Under the pieces are notes generated by a model. The model made no database searches. It was not told where the DNA came from and saw only the letters and a list, made by a program, of their open reading frames with translations. This document shows positions 1 through 23,674 of a stretch of 46,296 bases of DNA, one piece after another; the stretch's first letter is position 1; each line of letters opens with the position of its first letter. The position numbers were made by a program, and so were the translations under genes. This stretch comes from Candidatus Adlerbacteria bacterium (GTDB lineage: Bacteria; Patescibacteriota; Minisyncoccia; Phycocordibacterales; SBAW01). Location: positions 1 through 46,296 of the forward strand of contig JAYVXU010000021.1 of NCBI GenBank assembly GCA_043784925.1. Direction: 5' to 3'.

Positions 1-2
1 AC

Positions 3-107
3 AAAGGAAAGGCAACCGTCGCATACCGCATTCAGATCTCGGACCTTCAGGAAGCAGGTAACGACTACACCAACACCTTGACGTACGTTGCGACGCCTAA
101 GTTTTAA
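3..107 (+). CDS. 3' end of a CDS that starts upstream of the window; possible cell-surface (WxL-like?) protein C-terminus
   Basis: Frame 3 is open from the window edge to TAA at 105-107 and reads KGKATVAYRIQISDLQEAGNDYTNTLTYVATPKF*. The beta-strand-like C-terminus and the DUF916-like gene immediately downstream suggest a surface protein. The functional guess is weak. Confidence 0.35.
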   Translation, partial: KGKATVAYRIQISDLQEAGNDYTNTLTYVATPKF

Positions 108-234
108 ATAAAGGCAGCTCATGTATTATCCACAATCACTCTATTTCTGATTGAGAAGAGTGCTACCCTAATAGAGAAATCGAAGTGATTATTACCGCAA
201 AGCATGGTACAGTTTGGTTATAATATAAGAACAT

Positions 235-1320
235 ATGAACATTTTTTTTAGAAGGGCTGCAAAAGTTGTAACTGGAGCTTGCTTACTTGTTCTTAGTGCA
301 TACGGGGCTCCACTCAGTCATGCACAAACCGCAATTGGCTTGCAGCTCAAACCAGCCGTAGTCGAAGACCAAGTAAATCCGGGTGAAGACCATCAGTACT
401 CACTTTCGGTGACTAATGTGAGCAAAATACAAACAACTTTGTATATTCTTGCAGAGGACATCAAAGGTCTAGATAGCCAAGGTAGGCCAATATTTTCCTC
501 CCCCGGAGAAGTAACAGGGTACGAGCTCAGTTCTTGGATTACTCTCCCTGTAACAACCCTCATCTTGGCTCCCGGAGAAGTAAAAAATATGCCATTTTCT
601 GTTCGAGTCCCGACAGGTGCCACTCCGGGCTCCCATTTTGCTAGTATATTTTTTAGTGATAAACCAGTGGCACCAACAACCTCCGGTACCGGGGTCGGGT
701 TTAACATAGGCGCCATAGTGAGTTTGCGTATATCAGGAGACATACAAGAAGAAGCGCAGCTTCGTGAATTTTCAACTAATAAACTTATCTATTCCTCGGC
801 TGATGTGCAATTTATATCTAAAGTTCAAAACCTGGGTAATGTACTAGTACAGCCAACAGGAGTAATTCAGGTGACCAGCATGTTTGGTCATGAGGTTGCA
901 AATATTCCCGTCAACGAAACACTGGCGTCAGTATTTCCAAAGGCTGACCGGTCCTATACTTCACAGTGGAAGTCTGATGGATTTGCATTCGGTCGCTACC
1001 AAGCAATAGTAAGTCTTGTATACGGCACTGATGGTCGAAAAACTATCTACAGTACGACCTCTTTTTGGATTTTGCCTTTGGTGCCGATTCTTATTATTGG
1101 AGGAGTTCTTATAGGCATTTTGATACTCGCGTATTCTCTGATGAAGATATATATTCGAATACAACTCAAGAGTATGGGAGTGTCTCGCGTTAGCAAAGCT
1201 GACACGGACTTCTATAAAAAGAAATATCAAAAATCAAACTCGAGCCTTGTTGTCGTCACCATAGCGGTGCTGCTCATATGTATTGTCTTTCTTGTCCTTA
1301 TGTTTGTATTGTTTGCCTAA
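235..1320 (+). CDS. Secreted, membrane-anchored cell-surface protein, DUF916/DUF3324-like (CscA-like)
   Basis: 361-aa ORF. It has an N-terminal signal peptide (ACLLVLSAYGAPLSHAQT) and Ig-like segments (YSLSVTNVSK...TLYI; PGEVKNMPFSVRVPTGATPGSHFASIFF). It has a hydrophobic span (WILPLVPILIIGGVLIGILILAY) and a second C-terminal TM. The architecture matches DUF916+DUF3324 anchors of Gram-positive WxL/Csc loci, judged by eye. Confidence 0.55.
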   Translation: MNIFFRRAAKVVTGACLLVLSAYGAPLSHAQTAIGLQLKPAVVEDQVNPGEDHQYSLSVTNVSKIQTTLYILAEDIKGLDSQGRPIFSSPGEVTGYELSSWITLPVTTLILAPGEVKNMPFSVRVPTGATPGSHFASIFFSDKPVAPTTSGTGVGFNIGAIVSLRISGDIQEEAQLREFSTNKLIYSSADVQFISKVQNLGNVLVQPTGVIQVTSMFGHEVANIPVNETLASVFPKADRSYTSQWKSDGFAFGRYQAIVSLVYGTDGRKTIYSTTSFWILPLVPILIIGGVLIGILILAYSLMKIYIRIQLKSMGVSRVSKADTDFYKKKYQKSNSSLVVVTIAVLLICIVFLVLMFVLFA

Positions 1321-1336
1321 GTAGGGAAGGAGTTCT

Positions 1337-1738
1337 ATGCAAAAACGAGTCGGATATATAAACGCAAGTGGGCTCGCACTTTCAGCCCTTTTGTTTATGT
1401 ACTTTGCAGTAACCACAACGCCAACGTCTCTTCGTCATAGTACCCAAACCCTGCTTTCTGCCGTTGGCGTCACGATCGGAGTATCTTCTAACCCTTACAA
1501 CGAAGTTGCAAAAGAATTAAGTGATAAGGAAAATAAACTTACTCAACAAGAACAAGCAATGGCACAGCGAGAAAGTGCGTGGTCCAATCGTCCTCGCATA
1601 TTTGGTATTGATCTTAGTTTCTATAGTTTTGGGATGAGTATGATTTTATTTGTATTAGTACTTATTAACTTCTCCCAAAATTTGCGTCGAAAAGGGCGAC
1701 CTATAAACTCTCAGAAACTTTCCATAGATCTACGGTAA
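1337..1738 (+). CDS. Small membrane protein (N- and C-terminal TM segments with a central coiled-coil-like region), function unknown
   Basis: 133-aa ORF preceded by a good SD (GGAAGGAG at 1324-1331). Hydrophobic segments lie at both ends, with a charged KELSDKENKLTQQEQAMAQRE centre. Confidence 0.6.
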   Translation: MQKRVGYINASGLALSALLFMYFAVTTTPTSLRHSTQTLLSAVGVTIGVSSNPYNEVAKELSDKENKLTQQEQAMAQRESAWSNRPRIFGIDLSFYSFGMSMILFVLVLINFSQNLRRKGRPINSQKLSIDLR

Positions 1739-1757
1739 GATACATACAGAAAAGAAT

Positions 1758-3422
1758 ATGCGAAAATATTTACTTATCCTTATATTTTTTTTCGCTACAA
1801 CAGGGGTAGTGCACGCAAATGTTTTGAGCCAAGTTAGCGACCTGCTCTCTACCTCTGCTCCCGGGAGTCCTGCTAATCACACAATTCAATTTACTGTCCC
1901 GCATACCATACCTCCCTCAGGAACTATTGTTGTCAAATTTCAAAGTGGAGCTTTTACAATTCCTTCAGGTTTTGACTATACCGACGTAGACTTTGCAGTT
2001 TGGGATGGAAGTGTCTACGTGGATCGACCACTCGCAGCTGTTTCCGATGCAACAAACGACGGGGTCGCTGTTGTTTCGGGAAGTAGTGGTGTTATTACCG
2101 TATCTCTTTCATCAACCTCGGGTATACCAGCTGGAAGTCAGGTGCAACTACGTCTTGGATTGCACGCGGTATTTGGCGACGTACCACAAAGTGCAATTAG
2201 TAATCCTAGTCTTGTAAAATCATATTCGATCAGTCTTGTAACAACGGATGACTCTGGAATCCAGCTAGATTACGGTACAGCGATGATAGCAGTAGTGAGC
2301 CCTGTTACTTTGAACGTACCACTTAAAAACGTTGCACCAATTCCTACAAATTTGCGGCCAGGTGGTGAATTGGCTGCAGGAACGAGATCCATTGAGCTAA
2401 CGCTTGAAACCGATAGGACGTCAACATGCAAATATTCACTCACTCCCAATACTGCGTACGCAAGTATGACCCAATCCTTTTCGCCTCGTCAAGGGACTTT
2501 TTTCTATACGGTGTTAAGTGGGTATACGGATGGAACTTCCTATAACTACTATGTGCGCTGTGTAGGTACGCAAGGGGCTGTCGATACCCAAGACTACCCG
2601 CTTAGTTTTTCCCTTAAAGGTACCCCTATATCTCACACCTCTGTTACATTACCCGGTCAGATTATTGGGTCAGGAGATGTGCCAAATGGAAGTATGGTCT
2701 TGTATGAATCATCGGCACAGTTGTCGGGGCTTACTTCTCCTCTAAGTTCGATCAAAATAGTACAAGATGGAAAGGATTTGTTTACAGTTCAATCCGGGGC
2801 TGACGGTGCATTTCAAGCAGCTATTACCAGGCTCGAACGTGGTACGTATACCTTTACTATGTATTCTATAGATTCAAAACAAAGAAAGTCCGCTCCCTAT
2901 TCGGCAACTATGGCGATTGGGGCGGGTACGAGCAATACTATTTCAAACATTGTGTTACCCCCAACTCTAGCTTTAGAGGGTGACCAAGTTCCTATTGGTT
3001 CAAAAATTCATGTGTTTGGCGAAGCAACACCCAATAGCGTGATTGCAGTCACGATCACCCCCAAACCTGATACCGCGCACGAATCAAAAGTATATGCTGC
3101 AACTACCAGTGCAGCGGGCATCTGGGACTTTGCTACCAGTGCTCCTAAAAAAGGCACCTATGGTGTGAGAGCTCGACAAAAAATTGCTTCGGCCGAAAGT
3201 GATTTTACAAATTACGCATATATTGGGGTGGGGCAAAGTCCGTCCGTGCCAGCGTCCTCAGCCTCGCAGTCCGACATTAACGGTGATGGCAAAGTAAACT
3301 TAATCGATTTTTCGATCTTGCTTTCTGCCTGGGGAACGAGTAAAGCCAACTGTGACTTAAATAATGATGGTACGGTCAATCTTGCAGACTTTAGTATTCT
3401 GCTATTTAATTGGACAGGATAG
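1758..3422 (+). CDS. Secreted surface protein with a C-terminal type-I dockerin-like duplicated Ca-binding repeat
   Basis: 554-aa ORF with a signal peptide (LLILIFFFATTGVVHA). The C-terminal 50 aa carry two EF-hand-like dockerin repeats, DINGDGKVNLIDFSILLSAW and DLNNDGTVNLADFSILLFNW (about nt 3270-3419). Confidence 0.75.
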   Translation: MRKYLLILIFFFATTGVVHANVLSQVSDLLSTSAPGSPANHTIQFTVPHTIPPSGTIVVKFQSGAFTIPSGFDYTDVDFAVWDGSVYVDRPLAAVSDATNDGVAVVSGSSGVITVSLSSTSGIPAGSQVQLRLGLHAVFGDVPQSAISNPSLVKSYSISLVTTDDSGIQLDYGTAMIAVVSPVTLNVPLKNVAPIPTNLRPGGELAAGTRSIELTLETDRTSTCKYSLTPNTAYASMTQSFSPRQGTFFYTVLSGYTDGTSYNYYVRCVGTQGAVDTQDYPLSFSLKGTPISHTSVTLPGQIIGSGDVPNGSMVLYESSAQLSGLTSPLSSIKIVQDGKDLFTVQSGADGAFQAAITRLERGTYTFTMYSIDSKQRKSAPYSATMAIGAGTSNTISNIVLPPTLALEGDQVPIGSKIHVFGEATPNSVIAVTITPKPDTAHESKVYAATTSAAGIWDFATSAPKKGTYGVRARQKIASAESDFTNYAYIGVGQSPSVPASSASQSDINGDGKVNLIDFSILLSAWGTSKANCDLNNDGTVNLADFSILLFNWTG

Positions 3423-3425
3423 TAT

Positions 3426-3983
3426 ATGAAAAAACGACTACATCTACTGATTAAAATAATTAAAAAAGTTTCTTTGCGCACCTATTTTCAGATAGCAGGT
3501 GTGCTCGTGGTAGTACTTATTGTGGCTCTCATTATTAAAGCGCATACTCCGCGTCCGGGCACCGTTGCTTTTACGCACGAATACAAAGTTTCTCTTTTTG
3601 ATTATTCTGGACATGAAGTGCGATTTGATTCTTTTACTCAAAAAGCGCTGGTAGTATTTTTCTGGGCATCGTGGTGCCCTTATTGTAAGGCGGAGTTAAC
3701 TCATTTAGGAGAGTTAAAAGCACAGTATGGAGACAAAATTCAAATTTTAGCGGTAAACAGGGGAGAGTCTCTCAGTGATGCTAAAACATTTTCGGATTCC
3801 TTACTATTGCCGCCGGGAGTGCTTTTGCTGTTAGACCCTAATGACGGATTATTTAAACAACTGCAAGGGTATGCCGTACCCGAAACTATTTTTGTAAATA
3901 GTCGAGGCGAACAAGTCGTTCATCAACGAGGCCCAATGAAACCCGAAGAGGCAGACCAGGCTATACAAAAGATTTTGCAGTAG
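3426..3983 (+). CDS. Membrane-anchored thioredoxin-fold thiol:disulfide oxidoreductase (TlpA/ResA/redoxin family)
   Basis: 185-aa ORF with an N-terminal TM (YFQIAGVLVVVLIVALII). It has the CxxC motif in typical context (VVFFWASWCPYCKAEL) and the cis-Pro region YAVPETIFV. Confidence 0.8.
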   Translation: MKKRLHLLIKIIKKVSLRTYFQIAGVLVVVLIVALIIKAHTPRPGTVAFTHEYKVSLFDYSGHEVRFDSFTQKALVVFFWASWCPYCKAELTHLGELKAQYGDKIQILAVNRGESLSDAKTFSDSLLLPPGVLLLLDPNDGLFKQLQGYAVPETIFVNSRGEQVVHQRGPMKPEEADQAIQKILQ

Positions 3984-4038
3984 GGCGGGTAATAGTAGCC
4001 TATAACAAAAGGGGATTGTGGTGTAATGTACAAATATC

Positions 4039-4237
4039 GGGCATGTGGCGGAACTGGACTACTTAAAGTGTTCTGAATTGAGTGGGCGTGTGGCGGAATC
4101 TGGTATACGCGTACGTCTCAGAAGCGTATCCCTTACGGGTTGGGAGTTCGAGTCTCCCCACGCCCACTCAGTTCAGAATGGCGTCGTCTCAGAAGCGTAT
4201 GGAGTAATCCTTGGGAGTTCGAGTCTCCCCATGCCCA
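4039..4237 (+). pseudogene. Interrupted tRNA-Leu(CAG)-like gene: 5' part at 4039-4062 and 3' part at 4181-4237, split in the D-arm by an insert of about 118 nt that contains a complete tRNA
   Basis: The 5' part GGGCATGTGGCGGAACTGGACTAC and the 3' part GCGTCGTCTCAGAAGCGTA..GGGAGTTCGAGTCTCCCCATGCCCA align to the inner tRNA. They have their own complementary acceptor halves, GGGCATG/CATGCCC. The anticodon-stem 5' strand lacks 1 nt (GTCGT versus TACGT), so only 3 bp pair. Confidence 0.45.
4084..4166 (+). tRNA. tRNA-Leu (anticodon CAG), class II with a long variable arm; CCA not encoded
   Basis: Manual cloverleaf: acceptor GGGCGTG/CACGCCC; D-arm GCGG-AATCTGGTAT-ACGC; anticodon stem TACGT/GCGTA with loop CTCAGAA. 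The variable arm is TCCCTTACGGGTT, the T-arm is GGGAG-TTCGAGT-CTCCC, and the discriminator is A. Confidence 0.85.
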
Positions 4238-4371
4238 CAATGATTCGCAAAGACGGCTGGGTGCCGTCTGCGCGAAGTATCATTGTGCGTGCCGGGGGAG
4301 ACGAGAAGGCCGCAGGCGCGTCGGCGCCGAGGTGGGGTCGCGCAAATTTTTAGCAAAAAATTATGTGTGAC

Positions 4372-4390
4372 CGAGTCTCCCCATGCCCAC
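4372..4390 (+). repeat. Orphan 19-nt copy of the tRNA-Leu 3' end (att-core-like direct repeat)
   Basis: CGAGTCTCCCCATGCCCAC at 4372-4390 is identical to 4220-4238 and differs at 1 nt from 4149-4167. No matching T-stem 5' half lies upstream of this third copy. Confidence 0.8.
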
Positions 4391-4391
4391 T

Positions 4392-4583
4392 AAAATAAGG
4401 AGCAAAGCGACTATATTTTAGTAGGGTGCCGCAAGTATATGCGGCCGAACGAAAATACAGTAGGGTGCCTCACTAAAAAGTGAGGCCGAACAGAAAATAA
4501 GGCGACAATATTTCTGTCTGCACTCAAAAGTGTGACGAGGCGTCATGTGCCGCAAGTATATACAGAAGCGACAGAAAAATAAC
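4392..4583 (+). repeat. Irregular tandem array of short hairpin-containing repeats
   Basis: There are two units of about 40 nt: AGTAGGGT-GCCGCA(agtata)TGCGGC-CGAACGAAAATA at 4420-4458 and AGTAGGGT-GCCTCAC(taaaaa)GTGAGGC-CGAACAGAAAATA at 4459-4499. The motif AAAATAAGG..GCGAC..ATATTT recurs at 4392-4419 and 4494-4515. A partial GTGCCGCAAGTATATA copy lies at 4548-4563. Confidence 0.6.
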
Positions 4584-4676
4584 AAGCATGTTCTAATATC
4601 CGGAAAATTGGGTGGGTGATGAGAAGACTCTTGAACTTCCTAAAAAGCCTTATTTTGTGGCCCCTCTTGACATTAA

Positions 4677-4705
4677 TTGACAAATATTGTATTTGGGTGC
4701 ATACT
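4677..4705 (+). promoter_or_regulatory. Candidate sigma70-like promoter for the glycine-zipper peptide gene
   Basis: TTGACA at 4677-4682, a 17-nt spacer, then CATACT at 4700-4705. A second TTGACA lies at 4667-4672. The ATG at 4711 is only 5 nt past the -10 box, which implies a leaderless or near-leaderless mRNA. Confidence 0.3.
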
Positions 4706-4710
4706 TAAAG

Positions 4711-4983
4711 ATGAAACTGATCTTTAACGCTCTGGAGGACGACATGTTTACTTTTGCCCATGCTGGCGTCGGTGTCTTTACTGGTGTTGGCATAATGATT
4801 GGCGTCGGCGCATTTGTCGGTGTTGGCGTGCATCTCGGCTTGAATGTTGACAGTCCTGTTGGTGCAGGCGTCATGGTCGGCCCTGGCATCATGATTGGTG
4901 CTGGAGTTTTCACAGGCGTCGGCATCGTCATCGGTATCAAAGTCGGCCTTTGGTGGCCGAAGAAGTCAGAAGCAGTGTCGTAG
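4711..4983 (+). CDS. Small glycine-zipper hydrophobic protein with GxGxxxG repeats, function unknown
   Basis: 90 aa counted from ATG 4711 (the ORF track starts at TTG 4687). Two Gly/Val/Ile-rich blocks, GVGVFTGVGIMIGVGAFVGVGVHLG and GAGVMVGPGIMIGAGVFTGVGIVIGIKVG, are separated by NVDSP. The unit is bracketed by the promoter-like element and a rho-independent terminator on this strand. Confidence 0.45.
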   Translation: MKLIFNALEDDMFTFAHAGVGVFTGVGIMIGVGAFVGVGVHLGLNVDSPVGAGVMVGPGIMIGAGVFTGVGIVIGIKVGLWWPKKSEAVS

Positions 4984-4992
4984 TCATCTACC

Positions 4993-5040
4993 AACCGCCC
5001 ACTGAAAGCCTCACGGCTTCGGTTGGGCGGTTTTCTTTTT
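4993..5040 (+). terminator. Rho-independent terminator
   Basis: The outer stem AACCGCCC (4993-5000) pairs with GGGCGGTT (5025-5032). The inner stem is AAGCC/GGCTT, and a T-run TTTTCTTTTT follows. Confidence 0.7.
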
Positions 5041-5134
5041 ACTTTCCTCGAGGAAACTGTTTTTCGATTTCTTCCAAAACTCTTTTTTCAACCTCCTTAA
5101 GTGCTCTACGTACTCATTTGCATCTTTTACCTAC

Positions 5135-5362
5135 ATGAATGAAGTTAAAGGCTCGCACTCTGTTGAAGTGATTTATTTTGCAACTTTTGTAAGTCCGATT
5201 GAGAATATCCAAATCAACCCTGAAGATCATTCCAGATTTGAGTGGATTGAGGAAAATAGTCTGGAAAAGATATATACAGAGAATAAACGAGGCGATGATC
5301 CTGAAATCAAAGCATTGCGAAAAGGTTTCGCACTTTTATCGGGTAAGTCGCTAGAATTTTAA
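5135..5362 (+). pseudogene. Possible C-terminal remnant of a Nudix-family gene (no Nudix box present)
   Basis: The 75-aa ORF (..VEVIYFATFVSPIENIQINPEDHSRFEWIEENSLEKI..) resembles the post-Nudix-box part of Nudix hydrolases, including the paralog at 6172-6672 (..PQYNPDDFTEAFWLTPQELLRRI..). No upstream frame supplies the N-terminal half. Confidence 0.3.
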
Positions 5363-5478
5363 AAATAAACTATGCGGTAATCAGCAGTATTAAATGTTGA
5401 TGTAGTGAAGGAACCCACGCACATACCATTAAAAACAAAGGTAAAATGAGGATCCAACTAGTATGATATTATTTTGAT

Positions 5479-6120
5479 ATGGAAAAATTTAATTTTCGTG
5501 CTAAGAAAAAAGCTGAAGATAACGCGCCCGAGAATCCAACGAGACGCGCCTTTTTAGCGGGAGGGTTGGCAGCGGCAGCGTCTCTGGCAGCAGGGTCACA
5601 AGCGGAGGCTCGAAAGAAGGACCCATCTAAACCCACCCCACGTCAGGCGGCAGTAGCCCCAAGTGCTCCTGAGGCTGTAGCAAAAAAAGAATGGACGGTG
5701 AGAGAAACAAGACTATTGCTGGACGACAAATTGCAAATTGACCGCGCGTTCCTTCCCTTAGTTGATCAAGGGATGAGTGAACTCGGCTGGATTCTCGAAG
5801 ATTTTGAAGACGAACCGACCACTGACCCTGAAGTAAAGTCTCTTCGAGAAAGATATCCGGACTATCCTGAAATGAAAGAATTATACCGATACTTCCTTGA
5901 ACTTAAAATTGAATTTGCTCGAGCTCAAAGTGAGTTTAAAACTTTCTCAGTGGAAGTGAGGTGGGATGAAGCTCAAAAATCTCTAGACTCTATGAATCAT
6001 CTACTTCAAGAAATCCAGGGACTTCGCCGACACGTTAGTTTGATCCCGGGGAATCAAGAATACCTTATAGAAAAAAATGATTCAGAGGCGGAAGCTATAA
6101 AAAGAACCGGCTCTGCTTAA
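5479..6120 (+). CDS. Hypothetical exported protein with a twin-arginine (Tat) signal peptide
   Basis: 213-aa ORF. The N-terminus carries the TRRAFLAGGLAAAASLAAGSQAEA motif (RR at about nt 5542-5547). The remainder is helical and charged, and I recognised no family. Confidence 0.7.
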   Translation: MEKFNFRAKKKAEDNAPENPTRRAFLAGGLAAAASLAAGSQAEARKKDPSKPTPRQAAVAPSAPEAVAKKEWTVRETRLLLDDKLQIDRAFLPLVDQGMSELGWILEDFEDEPTTDPEVKSLRERYPDYPEMKELYRYFLELKIEFARAQSEFKTFSVEVRWDEAQKSLDSMNHLLQEIQGLRRHVSLIPGNQEYLIEKNDSEAEAIKRTGSA

Positions 6121-18811: not shown

Positions 18812-20926
18812 ATGCTAGAAGATATAAACAAAATAACCTATTTTGCCAAAACCAACTCTCGGGGCAAAGAAACACCTTTTGGTATTAAACGTCGCGACCG
18901 TCGTCGACACATGTATGTGATAGGGAAAACGGGCATGGGTAAGTCTACGTTGCTTGAAAACTTAGCTATACAAGATATCCGCAATGGCGAAGGAATGGCG
19001 TTTATAGATCCCCACGGTGGTACAGCGGATCGTATCATGGAATATATTCCTGAACATAGGATAAAGGATGTAATCTATATTGCGCCTTTTGATATGGAGC
19101 ATCCTGTAGCTTTTAATGTTATGGAAGATGTTGGATATGATAAGCGCCATTTGGTCGTGTCAGGGCTTATGTCTGCGTTTAAAAAACTCTGGGTAGACGC
19201 TTGGAGCGCTCGTATGGAATACATCCTCTCCAACACCCTTCTGGCGCTTCTTGAGTATGAAGGCTCAACGCTTCTGGATGTAAACACCATGTACACCAAT
19301 AAGGCGTTCCGAAAGAAGGTAGTAGATAACGTCAAAGACATGGTTGTTAAAAGATTCTGGACAGAAGAATTTGCCAATTTTACCGACCGGTTTGCAGCAG
19401 AAGCTACCCCTGCTATTCAAAATAAGGTGGGGCAATTTACGAGTAACCCTCTTATCCGAAATATTATTGGGCAACCAAAGTCGAGCTTTGATATCCGCCA
19501 GGCAATGGACGAAAAGAAAATTCTTATTATTAACTTGTCCAAAGGGCGGGTCGGGGAGGTTAATGCAGCACTTTTGGGCTCGATGCTCGTGACTAAAATC
19601 TATTTAGCGGCAATGTCACGGGCTGACGTACCGGCAGCAGTACTTAATGGGTTACCAGACTTCTATTTTTATGTGGACGAATTTCAAAACTTTGCAAACG
19701 AGAGTTTTGCAGATATTTTGTCTGAAGCTCGCAAATACAAACTCAATCTTTTAATTGCACATCAGTATGTCGAGCAAATGGAGGAAGAAGTAAGAAATGC
19801 AGTGTTTGGTAACGTCGGCACTACGGTCGCTTTTCGAGTTGGCCCCTTTGATGCAGAGGTTCTTGAAACCATATTTACTCCCCAATTTACCGCAACTGAC
19901 CTTGTCAATTTAGGTATGGCTCAGGTATATCTGACCCTTATGATAGATGGCGTCGGGTCGCCCCCCTTTAGTGCTACCACTTTGCCACCGTTTGACCCCT
20001 CTCCACACAACTACACAGACCGGGTGATAGCGAGTTCGCGTCAAACATATGCCAAACCTCGAGCAGAGGTTGAGGCGTTTATTAAAACATGGAGCGAAGG
20101 GGACGCACCCGCACCCGCTGCGCCCAAAACTACACCCTATGTTCCTCGAAGTTCTGCTCCCTCCTCATCTCCATCTCACTCTCAATCTAGTGCTCTACCT
20201 CGTCCCGAACATGCGCGACCCCATGAAGAGCCGCAACGTTCGGTGGCGCCTGAGCGCCGCGAATCTCGGCCATATGTGCCTCCGACAAGACCAGCCCCTC
20301 CACATGAAGCTGTTCAAGAGCAGCCGAGTCAGGAGTTGGGTCGCCATACACCTTCTACTCCAGCACCTGTCACATCTCGCGAAATGGTACCCAAGCCTCC
20401 TTCTACTCCAGCGCCACGTCCATCATATACACCTTCTACCCGCCCTCCTGAGGCACGGCCACCGAGACCCGAACTACGGCGAGAAGAACCTAAGCCTCCG
20501 CTTGAGGGTGCAACAAATCTGCGAGATGCCCTACGTATGGTGGGTGCAAACAAACCCCCGGCAGCGCAACCTGCCCCGATTCCCACGCCACAACCATCAC
20601 CTCGCGCTGTGCCTCCTGAGCCGCCTAAAACTCATCACCCACAACCTGACCTCAGAGATACGTTGAGCAAAATTGTTTCAAGTGTTGAGGTGAACCCCAA
20701 TCCTCCAGAACCAAAGCCAACACTACAAGCTCCTTCCAAACCTATACAACAAACTCCTCCTGCCTCAATTCCCAAGATTCCACCAGTGGTTGAATTGCCA
20801 CCTGTCGCGACAGAACAAAAAGCAAATGTACATGAACCAGCGCCGTCCAGTGCTGTAGGCTTGCCAGAGGATGTTCTGAAAGCTATGCTAGCCGTCGATG
20901 GATTCGACTCTGAAAACCCCCACTAG
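18812..20926 (+). CDS. P-loop NTPase of the VirD4/TraD (type IV coupling protein) / HerA-DUF87-like class, with a C-terminal proline-rich disordered tail of about 280 aa
   Basis: 704-aa ORF. Walker A is YVIGKTGMGKSTLLENL, followed by the IDPHGG motif, and Walker B is FYFYVDEFQNF. It has no N-terminal TM. From about nt 20084 onward the sequence is P/S/T/A/R-rich low complexity. Confidence 0.68.
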   Translation: MLEDINKITYFAKTNSRGKETPFGIKRRDRRRHMYVIGKTGMGKSTLLENLAIQDIRNGEGMAFIDPHGGTADRIMEYIPEHRIKDVIYIAPFDMEHPVAFNVMEDVGYDKRHLVVSGLMSAFKKLWVDAWSARMEYILSNTLLALLEYEGSTLLDVNTMYTNKAFRKKVVDNVKDMVVKRFWTEEFANFTDRFAAEATPAIQNKVGQFTSNPLIRNIIGQPKSSFDIRQAMDEKKILIINLSKGRVGEVNAALLGSMLVTKIYLAAMSRADVPAAVLNGLPDFYFYVDEFQNFANESFADILSEARKYKLNLLIAHQYVEQMEEEVRNAVFGNVGTTVAFRVGPFDAEVLETIFTPQFTATDLVNLGMAQVYLTLMIDGVGSPPFSATTLPPFDPSPHNYTDRVIASSRQTYAKPRAEVEAFIKTWSEGDAPAPAAPKTTPYVPRSSAPSSSPSHSQSSALPRPEHARPHEEPQRSVAPERRESRPYVPPTRPAPPHEAVQEQPSQELGRHTPSTPAPVTSREMVPKPPSTPAPRPSYTPSTRPPEARPPRPELRREEPKPPLEGATNLRDALRMVGANKPPAAQPAPIPTPQPSPRAVPPEPPKTHHPQPDLRDTLSKIVSSVEVNPNPPEPKPTLQAPSKPIQQTPPASIPKIPPVVELPPVATEQKANVHEPAPSSAVGLPEDVLKAMLAVDGFDSENPH

Positions 20927-21758
20927 CCTACTCTTCGTTGTTGGAGCTGTACTTCTGCTGTATACACACACGGCTCCAGTGTACGCACAATCGGGCGTGC
21001 ACATAACTGAGGTCATGTACGATGCGCCAGGAAATGACAGTGGTCTCGAATGGATAGAGCTGACAGGAGAAGGAGAGCAAAGTGTAGATATAGGAAAATA
21101 TAAAATCTTTGAATCAAAGAAAAAACACCCTCTTGTTGTAGTAAAAGGAGGAGTACAGCTTAATCCAGGAGACAGCGTTATTGTTGCACTAAATCCTGAG
21201 AAGTTTATGCGCGAGTACCCAACCTATAAGGGAACTATTTTCAAATCTTCTTTTTCGCTCTCAAATTCTGGGGAAACTATTTCACTTCTCGACGCTTCGA
21301 GTACTCCAATTGAAACTACTTATTACAGTACTTCCATGGGGGCTAAAGGGGATGGTAACTCTCTTCATGACTCCCCAGAGGGTTTAATGTCAGGACCTCC
21401 AGACCCAGGTGTATATTCAAAAATGACAATAGTCTCTGCTAACCCTTCAAAAATATTAGTAGGGAAGAAAGATGCACTTGTAGTAGCGCAAGTTCCTACT
21501 CTAATAAAACAAAAGCTGAGTAGTGGAGTTTCGTCATCATCTGCAGTGTCGAACCAGATACCTGCGAGTGATGTTGCGACTATGGCCCCAGCTATTCCCA
21601 GAGCCTCCAAATCATTTTCATATTTGTGGGCGCTTCTGGGGCTCGTTGGATGTTCAATTTTAGGGGTGAGTTGTGTGTGGTACGCTAAAACTACATCAGA
21701 TATTCTAGCACCACATCCCGAAACTACTTTTGATCCTGATGAGTTCCATATAGTATGA
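20898..21758 (+). CDS. Secreted lamin-tail-domain (LTD) protein with a C-terminal TM anchor
   Basis: 286-aa ORF with a signal peptide (LLFVVGAVLLLYTHTAPVYAQ). It has the LTD signature ITEVMYDAPGNDSGLEWIELTG...FSLSNSGETISLLD and a C-terminal TM (YLWALLGLVGCSILGVSCVWY). It overlaps the upstream ATPase gene by 29 nt. Confidence 0.75.
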   Translation: MDSTLKTPTSLLFVVGAVLLLYTHTAPVYAQSGVHITEVMYDAPGNDSGLEWIELTGEGEQSVDIGKYKIFESKKKHPLVVVKGGVQLNPGDSVIVALNPEKFMREYPTYKGTIFKSSFSLSNSGETISLLDASSTPIETTYYSTSMGAKGDGNSLHDSPEGLMSGPPDPGVYSKMTIVSANPSKILVGKKDALVVAQVPTLIKQKLSSGVSSSSAVSNQIPASDVATMAPAIPRASKSFSYLWALLGLVGCSILGVSCVWYAKTTSDILAPHPETTFDPDEFHIV

Positions 21759-22990: not shown

Positions 22991-23674
22991 ATGCGAGTTG
23001 AGCCATTTACAGTAGATTCTTATATACACGTGGTCAAACGTGGGGCGCGAGGCTTGCCTATTGTTATTGATGATGCTGACCAGTGGCGTTTCCTGCGTCT
23101 TATGTACTATATGAATGATGAATATTTGGATGAGAATTGGGACCAGGTTACTAAATCTGGAGATTTATTCAACAGACCAGATTGGTGGCCCGAACGTTTG
23201 CCCATTGTGAGAATATTAGGATTCACTCTTATGTCAAACCATTTACATTTGATTCTTCAAGAAATGCGAGAAGGAGGGGTGTCAATGTTCATGCGTAAAC
23301 TGGGGCAAAGTATGACCAATCACCATAATGAGAAGTATCGTCAGCGAGGCAGCCTTTTCCAAGGCTCGTATAGAGCTCGGACAATTCAGAGCGATGAATA
23401 CCTGCGTTATGTTGCGGTATATGTAATGGTAAAAAATATTTTTGAGCTGTACCCAATGGGTGGGCTGGAGGGGGCAATTAAAAACTTTGAAGCAGCTTGG
23501 AGCTGGGCAGTCACGTATCCATTTTCGAGTCTTGGAGAGTACGCGTCAGAAAGAAACTTTCCCATTATTGATAAAGGAATTTTCGGAGAAATATATGCAA
23601 CCTCAAAAGACTTTAAAAGGTTTGCTCATGAAGTAATCAAGGGAGGCAAATGGTTGAATACTGATTTTGAGTAA
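22991..23674 (+). CDS. Y1 (HUH) tyrosine transposase, IS200-like / REP-associated tyrosine transposase (RAYT)-like
   Basis: 227-aa ORF. It has YIHVVKRGARGLPIV, the HUH motif SNHLHLIL (His-Leu-His at nt 23240-23248) and a Tyr-containing helix LFQGSYRARTIQSDEYLRYVAVYVMVKN. Confidence 0.75.
   Translation: MRVEPFTVDSYIHVVKRGARGLPIVIDDADQWRFLRLMYYMNDEYLDENWDQVTKSGDLFNRPDWWPERLPIVRILGFTLMSNHLHLILQEMREGGVSMFMRKLGQSMTNHHNEKYRQRGSLFQGSYRARTIQSDEYLRYVAVYVMVKNIFELYPMGGLEGAIKNFEAAWSWAVTYPFSSLGEYASERNFPIIDKGIFGEIYATSKDFKRFAHEVIKGGKWLNTDFE

Follow-up and report, generated by a model that had tools for sequence, protein, structure and literature searches.

A tRNA-Leu(CAG) gene nested within an interrupted tRNA-Leu(CAG) gene of Candidatus Adlerbacteria: a probable tRNA-replacement cassette

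The nested tRNA-Leu(CAG) locus

In a stretch of 46,296 nucleotides (nt) from Candidatus Adlerbacteria bacterium (contig JAYVXU010000021.1 of assembly GCA_043784925.1), hereafter the window, a complete tRNA-Leu(CAG) gene lies inside a second copy of the same gene, which it splits in two, and is enclosed by an inverted repeat (Table 1). The present study deals with this nested locus and with the unannotated tRNA-linked element (TLE) that follows it. An original prediction, made from the letters of the DNA, had described the nested arrangement and offered three readings of it: (a) a small insertion that disrupted a tRNA gene and carried its own replacement, (b) an intron-like tRNA-in-tRNA transcript and (c) a scar of duplication and deletion. 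The coordinates and sequences given there were all correct on re-reading. Two features had been overlooked, a third copy of the tRNA 3' end, which the right arm of the TLE explains, and an odd end of the D-loop in the 5' half of the outer copy.

ARAGORN calls a single tRNA in the whole 46-kb window, a tRNA-Leu(CAG) at 4084-4167, and the inner gene (4084-4166) reaches 54.2 bits with the Rfam model RF00005, whose gathering threshold is 29. Its 13-nt variable arm, the A at 4166 and the CAG anticodon fit a bacterial class-II tRNA-Leu, as had been predicted. Because no CCA is encoded, it would be added post-transcriptionally.

The two flanking pieces make up a second tRNA-Leu(CAG). Over the first 15 nt of the inner tRNA, the outer 5' piece gives a match of 93%, and the outer 3' piece is a 54-nt repeat of the inner tRNA, 83% identical and spaced by 71 nt. 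The acceptor strands pair within each copy, GGGCATG with CATGCCC in the outer one and GGGCGTG with CACGCCC in the inner one, which bears out the compensated acceptor stem that had been described for the second copy. After removal of 4063-4180 in silico, ARAGORN still called a tRNA-Leu(CAG), as it did, being a permissive tool, for many junctions near 4062|4181. The outer copy has a 1-nt deletion in its anticodon stem, which had been noticed earlier and is visible against the orthologous gene described below. The last 5 nt of its 5' half read ACTAC, a non-canonical sequence where a normal D-loop has TATAC, and no D-loop of this kind was found in the uninterrupted tRNAs of 80 relatives.

Between the two halves, the insert (4063-4180) measures 118 bp, holds no open reading frame (ORF) and consists of a spacer, the tRNA gene and its leader/trailer inverted repeat. 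The two repeat arms pair through 12 Watson-Crick and 2 G:T pairs, and repeat arm and acceptor stem together form a 23-nt arm that is 91% complementary. The predicted RNA fold is a cloverleaf closed by a continuous helix of 21 bp (-56.2 kcal/mol, z = -5.9), in agreement with the earlier proposal that the repeat stacks on the inner acceptor stem, and the whole locus is predicted to fold as a nested double cloverleaf (z = -5.1). The sequence of the repeat arm has no second occurrence within the window, no Rfam family besides that of the inner tRNA reaches its threshold in the insert, and a scan for sigma-70 promoters and terminators around the locus gave nothing informative upstream of 4039. The protein of a spurious ORF at 4045-4353 had no record in an exact-match look-up.

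Table 1. Features of the nested tRNA locus, of the element downstream of it and of other genes of the window that are discussed in the text
Feature	Position	Strand	Sequence or evidence
5' part of the resident (outer) tRNA-Leu(CAG), from GGGCATG to the D-loop	4039-4062	+	GGGCATGTGGCGGAACTGGACTAC; probably a pseudogene fragment now
Left-end spacer of the insert, A/T-rich	4063-4069	+	TTAAAGT
Inverted repeat, left arm (leader strand, extends the acceptor stem)	4070-4083	+	GTTCTGAATTGAGT
Inner tRNA-Leu(CAG), class-II, complete, 83 nt, discriminator A, CCA not encoded	4084-4166	+	ARAGORN, Rfam RF00005
Inverted repeat, right arm (trailer strand), its first base the discriminator	4166-4179	+	ACTCAGTTCAGAAT
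Single G between the right repeat arm and the outer 3' part	4180
3' part of the resident (outer) tRNA-Leu(CAG)	4181-4237	+	GCGTCGTCTCAGAAGCGTATGGAGTAATCCTTGGGAGTTCGAGTCTCCCCATGCCCA; D-stem 3' strand, anticodon arm, variable arm, T-arm, CATGCCC + A
TLE, whole element, directly 3' of the tRNA locus, unannotated	4238-4393	+
Variable hairpin that starts the TLE	4238-4288	+	homologous hairpin after uninterrupted tRNAs in L104 and L105
Conserved core of the TLE, three-way junction	4282-4393	+	covariance model R1, 116 bits
Third tRNA-Leu 3'-end copy, outer-type allele, right arm of the TLE	4372-4391	+	CGAGTCTCCCCATGCCCACT
Thioredoxin/AhpC-like gene, directly upstream, synteny anchor to L092/L077	3426-3983	+	Pfam AhpC-TSA/Redoxin
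VirD4/TraG-type coupling protein, then lamin-tail-domain protein	18812-21758	+
227-aa protein with IS200-like Y1 transposase domain	22991-23674	+	Pfam Y1_Tnp, E = 1e-6

Empty sites, recurrence and the leader-trailer helix

Public genomes, one per species, were scanned for the T-arm and acceptor sequence that both copies have in common. The scan gave at least 119 loci (L and a number), all of them in Patescibacteria-type genomes among the matches listed. Among the matches listed, the closest public relatives of the window are Candidatus Adlerbacteria genomes, which places its bacterium in the Patescibacteria (Paceibacterota). Two of the loci, L092 (Adlerbacteria) and L077, keep the gene order of the window up to the tRNA, with genes for a 361-aa protein, a 133-aa protein, a dockerin protein and the thioredoxin-like protein; in L092 the collinearity covers positions 1-3983 of the window. 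Besides the dockerin protein, the window encodes Mur ligases, an alanine racemase, a lamin-tail-domain protein, a VirD4-like ATPase and many glycosyltransferases.

At the orthologous site, L092 has one uninterrupted tRNA-Leu(CAG) with no flanking repeat. The outer copy of the window, spliced in silico, differs from this tRNA at 6 of 82 positions, its 5' part is the same over positions 1-19 apart from one C/T polymorphism, and the two have in common the acceptor pair A5:T68 and a GGAG..ATCC variable arm. Unlike both of them, the inner tRNA has G5:C68 and a CCC...GGG variable arm; the D-loop also differs between the copies, the inner one having 83 nt and the outer one 82 nt. The L092 tRNA is thus the orthologue of the outer copy, and this empty site shows that the outer copy is a resident tRNA gene split by the insertion of 4063-4180. 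A second pair of filled and empty sites is formed by L018, which is nested, and L005, which is plain: both flanks are common to the two, and the outermost 5' remnant of L018 begins exactly at the start of the L005 tRNA. L018 is in fact doubly nested, and its comparison with L005 suggests several rounds of insertion at the one site, with later deletion between the repeats. On the minus strand of L018:4300-4620 the arrangement resembles a Russian doll: behind a nested tRNA-Leu comes a 3' half that has a right repeat arm of its own, and behind that another 3' half begins.

L077 is a nested locus as well, with a related cassette, similar repeat arms and a heavily decayed outer copy. The inner tRNAs of the window and L077 differ at 3 of 83 positions and both have an unusual AATCTGG D-loop, while the divergence of the outer copy is about 30% in L077 and about 7% in the window. 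Amino acid identities for the thioredoxin-like and the dockerin protein are 80% and 65% between L092 and L077, 77% and 59% between the window and L092, and 72% and 60% between the window and L077 (the values for the window by tblastn). Of the three, plain L092 and nested L077 are therefore the closest pair, which argues that the insertions in the window and in L077 were independent. With a single ancestral insertion, the gene of L092 would have had to be restored precisely and the decay in the other two lineages would have to differ four-fold; two insertions of related cassettes at this site would be the simpler account. In the same sense, one repeat subfamily is found in residents with different acceptor alleles, GGGCATG/CATGCCC in L024, L063, L026 and L017, and GGGTGCG/CGCACCC in L084 and L047. 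Since matched strands cannot co-evolve in a pseudogene, the insertions into GGGCATG and into GGGTGCG residents point to separate events.

The extended acceptor stem, with at least 10 leader-trailer pairs, occurs in 30 of 111 public tRNA-Leu(CAG) loci among the matches listed, and the remaining ones have 9 pairs or fewer, so that the distribution is bimodal. Among neighbouring tRNA genes it was absent from tRNA-Val(TAC) (0/32), Arg(TCT) (0/25) and Leu(GAG) (0/23), and it was present in 2 of 12 tRNA-Ser(TGA) and 2 of 30 tRNA-Ile(GAT) genes. Outer remnants broken in the D-arm are kept at no fewer than 14 tRNA-Leu(CAG) loci, at least 12 loci have the D-arm junction in common, and all loci of the D-arm class have short T-rich spacers comparable to 4063-4069. 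The outer copies in L017, L024, L063, L077, L115 and L047 are decayed, truncated or interrupted again; that of L084 appears intact. The nested locus L047 belongs to a complete curated Kaiserbacteria chromosome (CP066682). In the genome bin REEB120 a nested (L024) and a plain (L057) tRNA-Leu(CAG) were seen on different contigs, which may reflect strain heterogeneity, contamination of the bin or a genome caught with two copies.

The nesting of a cognate tRNA is repeated in L109 (Ser) and L106 (Ile), where inner and outer pieces are nearly identical. Long leader-trailer repeats with cognate 5' or 3' fragments were observed at Ser(TGA) and Ile(GAT) genes in L109:4630-4940, L106:2640-3000, L094:4351-4640 and L093:2470-2710. 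Several of the Ser and Ile fragments have small perfect GC-rich hairpins inserted in their stems, as has the outer anticodon stem of L047. A metagenome scan with the left arm of the window returned 21 matches, 20 of them due to chance and one real (L142). At L142:780-1060 there is a 5' half, a spacer, the left arm and a hybrid tRNA with the inner 5' end and the outer 3' end (GGGCGTG...CATGCCCA, whose acceptor stem contains a G·T), without a right arm and with a TLE directly after it. Such a form is the product expected from recombination or deletion between the repeats spaced by 71 nt, or from one-sided illegitimate recombination.

An alignment of 31 cassettes with 18 nt of flank on either side allowed us to examine the inverted repeat. 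Over 15 leader-trailer pairs, 87% of the cells are paired and changes on both sides are seen in 12 of the 15 pairs; sliding the partner by 1-3 columns lowers the overall pairing from 95% to 30-55%. G·U combinations exceed A·C by 62 to 9, and by 48 to 6 for loci picked on Watson-Crick pairs only. This covariation, with the excess of G·U over A·C, indicates that the transcript, being the tRNA-sense strand, is where the helix is maintained, and shows the repeat to be a conserved, if so far predicted, RNA helix. Conservation is highest in the bases that adjoin the tRNA (..TGAGT / tRNA / ACTCA..) and lowest at the outer tips, which is the opposite of the terminal repeats of transposons, where the tips are conserved.

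Origin of the nested locus

We consider it probable that the insert is a recurrent cassette that replaces a cognate tRNA gene, with the inner gene functional and the outer copy left as a young pseudogene. The empty site found in L092, and likewise in L005 against L018, the decayed outer copies and the independent recurrence all favour reading (a) of the original prediction. The resident tRNA-Leu(CAG) gene of the window was probably single-copy. Judging from the comparison with relatives, the inner gene would be the working tRNA and the outer halves a young pseudogene. Transcription would begin at the resident promoter; leader and trailer would pair and stack on the acceptor stem, and the resulting 21-bp RNA helix, which is predicted and supported by covariation, would allow the inner tRNA to fold apart from the look-alike outer halves. 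RNase III and/or RNase P together with RNase Z may then free the inner tRNA. A role of the helix as a processing or insulating stem is plausible on the modelled fold, with RNase III as the obvious candidate.

Within this phylum, related cassettes entered the cognate tRNA gene on repeated and independent occasions, in the manner of a small gene-replacement element of a homing-like kind. Our best guess for their spread is DNA uptake followed by gene conversion, in which the conserved tRNA halves beside the cassette would serve as homology arms, and a break in the resident tRNA gene may aid the entry. Only cognate insertions would survive, since in these small genomes every tRNA gene is present once and cannot be dispensed with. 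The pattern of homing is found here in the filled and empty orthologous alleles (window/L092, L018/L005), in the common D-arm junction and in the junction flank: positions 20-24 of the 5' half (ACTAC in the window, NCTRN generally) are cassette-subfamily-specific and never occur in uninterrupted genes. Co-conversion of the flanks next to the junction is what a spread that uses the tRNA halves as arms predicts.

Several observations weigh against this explanation. The seed of the scan was the T-arm and acceptor of the window's own tRNA, so resident alleles with other acceptor stems (for example GGGTGCG) were left out. Neither a donor form nor an enzyme nor a target-site duplication was found for the cassette. 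All-against-all clustering of the ORFs from 32 cassette and 88 plain loci gave only families of clade synteny (for example a PrkA-like fragment), with no nuclease or recombinase, and the junction pattern of the cassette had 0 matches in IMG/VR. About half of the loci with an extended stem have no outer remnant, and thus the extended form could be the ancestral gene in some lineages. Other break points lie after the anticodon loop (L025, L043, L045, L101, L112) and in the T-loop (L086); such varied positions, all in loop regions, do not fit one sequence-specific nuclease. Plain partial tandem duplications occur too: in L025, L043 and L045 the 5' part is duplicated together with a left repeat arm of its own, and in L056 the 3' part, followed by the same right arm. 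The outer copy of the window is nearly intact, so that some residual function is possible, and the covariation of the repeat could partly stem from correction of a quasi-palindrome at the DNA level, not from selection on the RNA.

With regard to how the cassette moves, two ideas were tried and rejected. A crossover core or microhomology at the junction was considered because ..GRAYGG in the distal right arm resembles GGAAYTGG of the D-loop, yet this is inconsistent across subfamilies. A miniature inverted-repeat transposable element or a transposon of the insertion-sequence type does not agree with the variable repeat tips, the lack of a target-site duplication and an arm that is unique in the window. 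The window also encodes a protein with an IS200-like Y1 transposase domain. Transposases of this type act on DNA hairpins and, by analogy, it is conceivable that the protein is a trans-acting factor for the hairpin-shaped cassettes. Pairs of VirD4/TraG and lamin-tail genes, such as the one in the window, are linked to DNA uptake or secretion in bacteria of the candidate phyla radiation (CPR), which makes the pair relevant to the idea that the cassette spreads by DNA uptake.

Among the alternatives, the one that survives best is reading (c), although we regard it as unlikely: a local scar of duplication and deletion, produced by slippage or template switching at a palindromic tRNA, without any foreign or mobile cassette. 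It draws support from the partial tandem duplications mentioned above, from the close identity of inner and outer pieces in the Ile and Ser loci and from small snap-back-like hairpins at several junctions. Nevertheless, the syntenic site in L092 has a single plain gene and no tandem pair, and the inner and outer copies of the window are different alleles in acceptor pair, variable arm and D-loop. The flanks of the inner tRNA are unrelated to the outer flanks and homologous to cassette flanks in unrelated genomes (L018, L048), and two independent deletions would not repeatedly yield complementary halves. These points speak against the scar proposed earlier.

Slightly less credible again is an origin as the residue of a larger integrative element: a prophage or island that entered the tRNA gene with an integrase and a copy of tRNA-Leu would have shrunk by deletion to about 118 bp. 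Integration into tRNA genes is classic, and such elements often bring a displaced tRNA segment (an archaeal example is given in PMC3293823). Moreover, some of the breaks fall in the anticodon loop or T-loop, which are known integrase sublocations, and the TLE next to the cassette locus lies within a 19-nt direct repeat made of the tRNA 3' end, an arrangement like attL/attR. However, no integrase or other element gene is present at any of about 30 loci, and the identical minimal unit (spacer, repeat, tRNA, repeat) is left each time. No direct repeat flanks the cassette, the D-arm is not known as an integrase sublocation, the cassette has no match in IMG/VR, and recombination at an attP that bears a tRNA would give two flanking hybrid tRNAs instead of a nested one.

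An intron-like or split tRNA, as in reading (b), seems improbable. Here one precursor would have the inner tRNA cut out and the outer halves, which the 14-bp repeat would hold together, joined or used as a two-piece tRNA, with both products functional. The outer halves do fit exactly at the D-arm with matched acceptor strands, the spliced outer product is accepted by ARAGORN, the locus folds as a nested double cloverleaf, the outer copy of the window differs from a functional orthologue at just 6 of 82 positions, and that of L084 looks intact. Against this, the outer copies are decayed, truncated or interrupted again in most relatives and that of the window has its anticodon-stem deletion and non-canonical D-loop; it is this lack of conservation that makes a function of the intron-like or split kind unlikely. 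No match to Intron_gpI was obtained at the gathering threshold, nor at E<=10 in 3900-5600, and thus no group I core. The predicted folds have no 3-nt bulges at 4062/4063 or 4180/4181 and hence no bulge-helix-bulge, and no EndA is present among the 30 window proteins scanned. Both tRNAs carry the same anticodon, which leaves no obvious benefit.

An assembly artefact, in which two strain alleles were stitched together by a metagenome assembler, is very hard to credit. Logan contigs of the same run do stop within the repeated segments of the tRNA, at 4129 and 4210, which could reflect strain variation. But the spacer and the repeat arms, being unique sequence, must come from real DNA, and from 70 to 4129 (5' half with the left junction, left arm and start of the inner tRNA) the window is reproduced without a difference by the Logan assembly of SRR23617254. 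The same architecture occurs in no fewer than 14 genomes, which stem from different studies and were put together with different assemblers, and the complete chromosome with L047 argues that the layout is real. The Logan contig ends, 4129/4130 and 4209/4210, are exactly where the identity between inner and outer copy stops. An empty-site or recombinant allele that co-occurs in the sample would produce such breaks.

The downstream element and comparison with known systems

Directly after the tRNA locus, the TLE presents, in this order, a variable hairpin, a strand antisense to the 3' strand of the T-arm, a three-way junction (GAGAAGGCCG.., GGGGTCGCGC..AGCA loop..GTGTGACCG) and, last, 19 nt of the tRNA 3' end copied in sense orientation. 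In the window the covariance model finds one TLE, and in relatives, over roughly 0.9 Mb of sequence, it finds about 40; the element has a size of about 110-150 nt. Each copy follows a tRNA closely on its 3' side and on the same strand, namely Leu-CAG, Leu-GAG, Val-TAC, Ile-GAT, His-GTG or Arg, and many of them end in a copy of 14-19 nt of the 3' end of their own tRNA. In the structure, pairing amounts to 95%, compensatory changes are seen in 20 of 24 pairs, and one G·U is invariant in 34 of 34 copies. The element is absent downstream of the tRNA in L092 and L077, and it was also found inside disrupted outer tRNAs (L112, L014). It has no Rfam match, and a hammerhead, hepatitis delta virus (HDV), hatchet or twister ribozyme was rejected since there were no Rfam matches to these and the junction lengths are unlike those of the hammerhead. 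The TLE may act as a trailer RNA in the maturation of the tRNA or, alternatively, be a miniature mobile element.

The family may extend beyond Patescibacteria. L145:2900-3319 (IMGVR_UViG_3300033463_005745) has tandem TLE-like units, each with an end like that of a tRNA 3' end (CAAATCCCTCCCTCTCCG); ARAGORN found no tRNA in the L145 stretch examined, and the neighbour genes (GalE, cytidine deaminase) look cellular.

Further small repeats were observed downstream in the window. A non-coding stretch of 1.2 kb follows the tRNA, and at 4418-4600 it has small repeated hairpins: two similar units of the form AGTAGGGTGCC-hairpin-GGCCGAAC (about 4421-4451 and 4462-4494), and GTGCCGCAAGTATAT, which is repeated at 4426 and 4547. 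Beyond them, an ORF of 18-nt periodic repeats (TGGCGTCGGTGT.. units) can be read at 4687-4983 on the plus strand and at 4650-4994 on the minus strand, and may be a small Gly/Val-rich protein or non-coding repeat DNA; the Logan gene calls near it are genes of 90 aa and 75 aa.

Taken together with the cassettes, the TLE leads us to a tentative idea, which we hold with much less confidence than the replacement of the tRNA-Leu(CAG) gene itself. Patescibacteria might carry an undescribed, protein-free mobilome of tRNA loci, made up of helix-clamped tRNA cassettes that home into the loops of cognate tRNAs (Leu-CAG, Ser-TGA, Ile-GAT) and of TLE that sit in the trailers and whose arms match, one in antisense and one in sense, the 3' end of their own tRNA. 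The intermediate of the cassettes may be a folded RNA or a single-stranded DNA hairpin, and the cassettes would persist as each tRNA gene is single-copy and essential.

If the nested locus is such a replacement, bacterial tRNA genes can be renewed by nested self-replacement, a third mode beside group I introns and partial copies borne by integrases. This bears on the debate in archaea about the origin of disrupted and split tRNA genes and the role of mobile elements in it, for which the nested locus would be a bacterial counterpart. The covarying leader-trailer helix provides a hypothesis for pre-tRNA processing in organisms with a reduced RNA-processing machinery, and the TLE is a candidate new RNA family with strong support from covariation. 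There is a practical side too: tRNA finders report the inner gene only, and the pseudo-halves and the trailer element stay unannotated in thousands of CPR genomes, which can confuse the search for integration sites.

No account of nested bacterial tRNA genes or of a tRNA trailer element came up in literature searches, which agrees with the original prediction that a bacterial precedent had not been described. The nearest systems resemble the locus in part. Like integrative elements, whether prophages, islands or the archaeal pNOB8/SSV-type, the cassette targets a tRNA gene, leaves a fragment of the old gene, restores a cognate tRNA and is variably present in close relatives; in Caldiarchaeum subterraneum, for instance, an integration at tRNA-Thr(GGU) left a 5' fragment beside a new tRNA-Thr gene (PMC3293823). 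Unlike them, it measures 118 bp, has no genes and no flanking direct repeat, and has the D-arm as its main site. It also brings a whole tRNA, and the outcome is a nested gene instead of a hybrid gene with a distant fragment.

The long helix formed by flanking repeats that encloses a stable RNA, with compensatory changes, recalls the leader-trailer stems of rRNA cut by RNase III and the intervening sequences of 23S rRNA. Here, in contrast, the helix encloses a single tRNA and is continuous with its acceptor stem, and cleavage by RNase III is a prediction only. As in the disrupted tRNAs of archaea (non-canonical introns, split and permuted tRNAs), the interruption lies away from the anticodon, the D-arm included, and, as in the split tRNA halves of Nanoarchaeum, complementary sequences beside the break form a helix. 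The archaeal non-canonical introns, split and permuted tRNAs are processed at bulge-helix-bulge motifs. The present locus departs from them in its bacterial host, in having no predicted bulge-helix-bulge, in an intervening sequence that is itself a complete tRNA and in the decay of the interrupted copy.

Group I introns are the only well-described class of bacterial tRNA genes with an interruption, and the interruptions described lie in the anticodon loop (10.1101/2020.01.27.920355). They home into the cognate intron-less gene by means of the flanking exon sequence, and the spread of the cassette may be likened to theirs. The cassette differs from them in that it has no ribozyme core, measures 118 nt and sits in the D-arm, and in that the interrupted gene is replaced rather than spliced. 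A gene-less insert of 118 bp that enters the D-arm with a whole cognate tRNA therefore matches no described system as such, and we would place it with the insertions that bring their own replacement tRNA.

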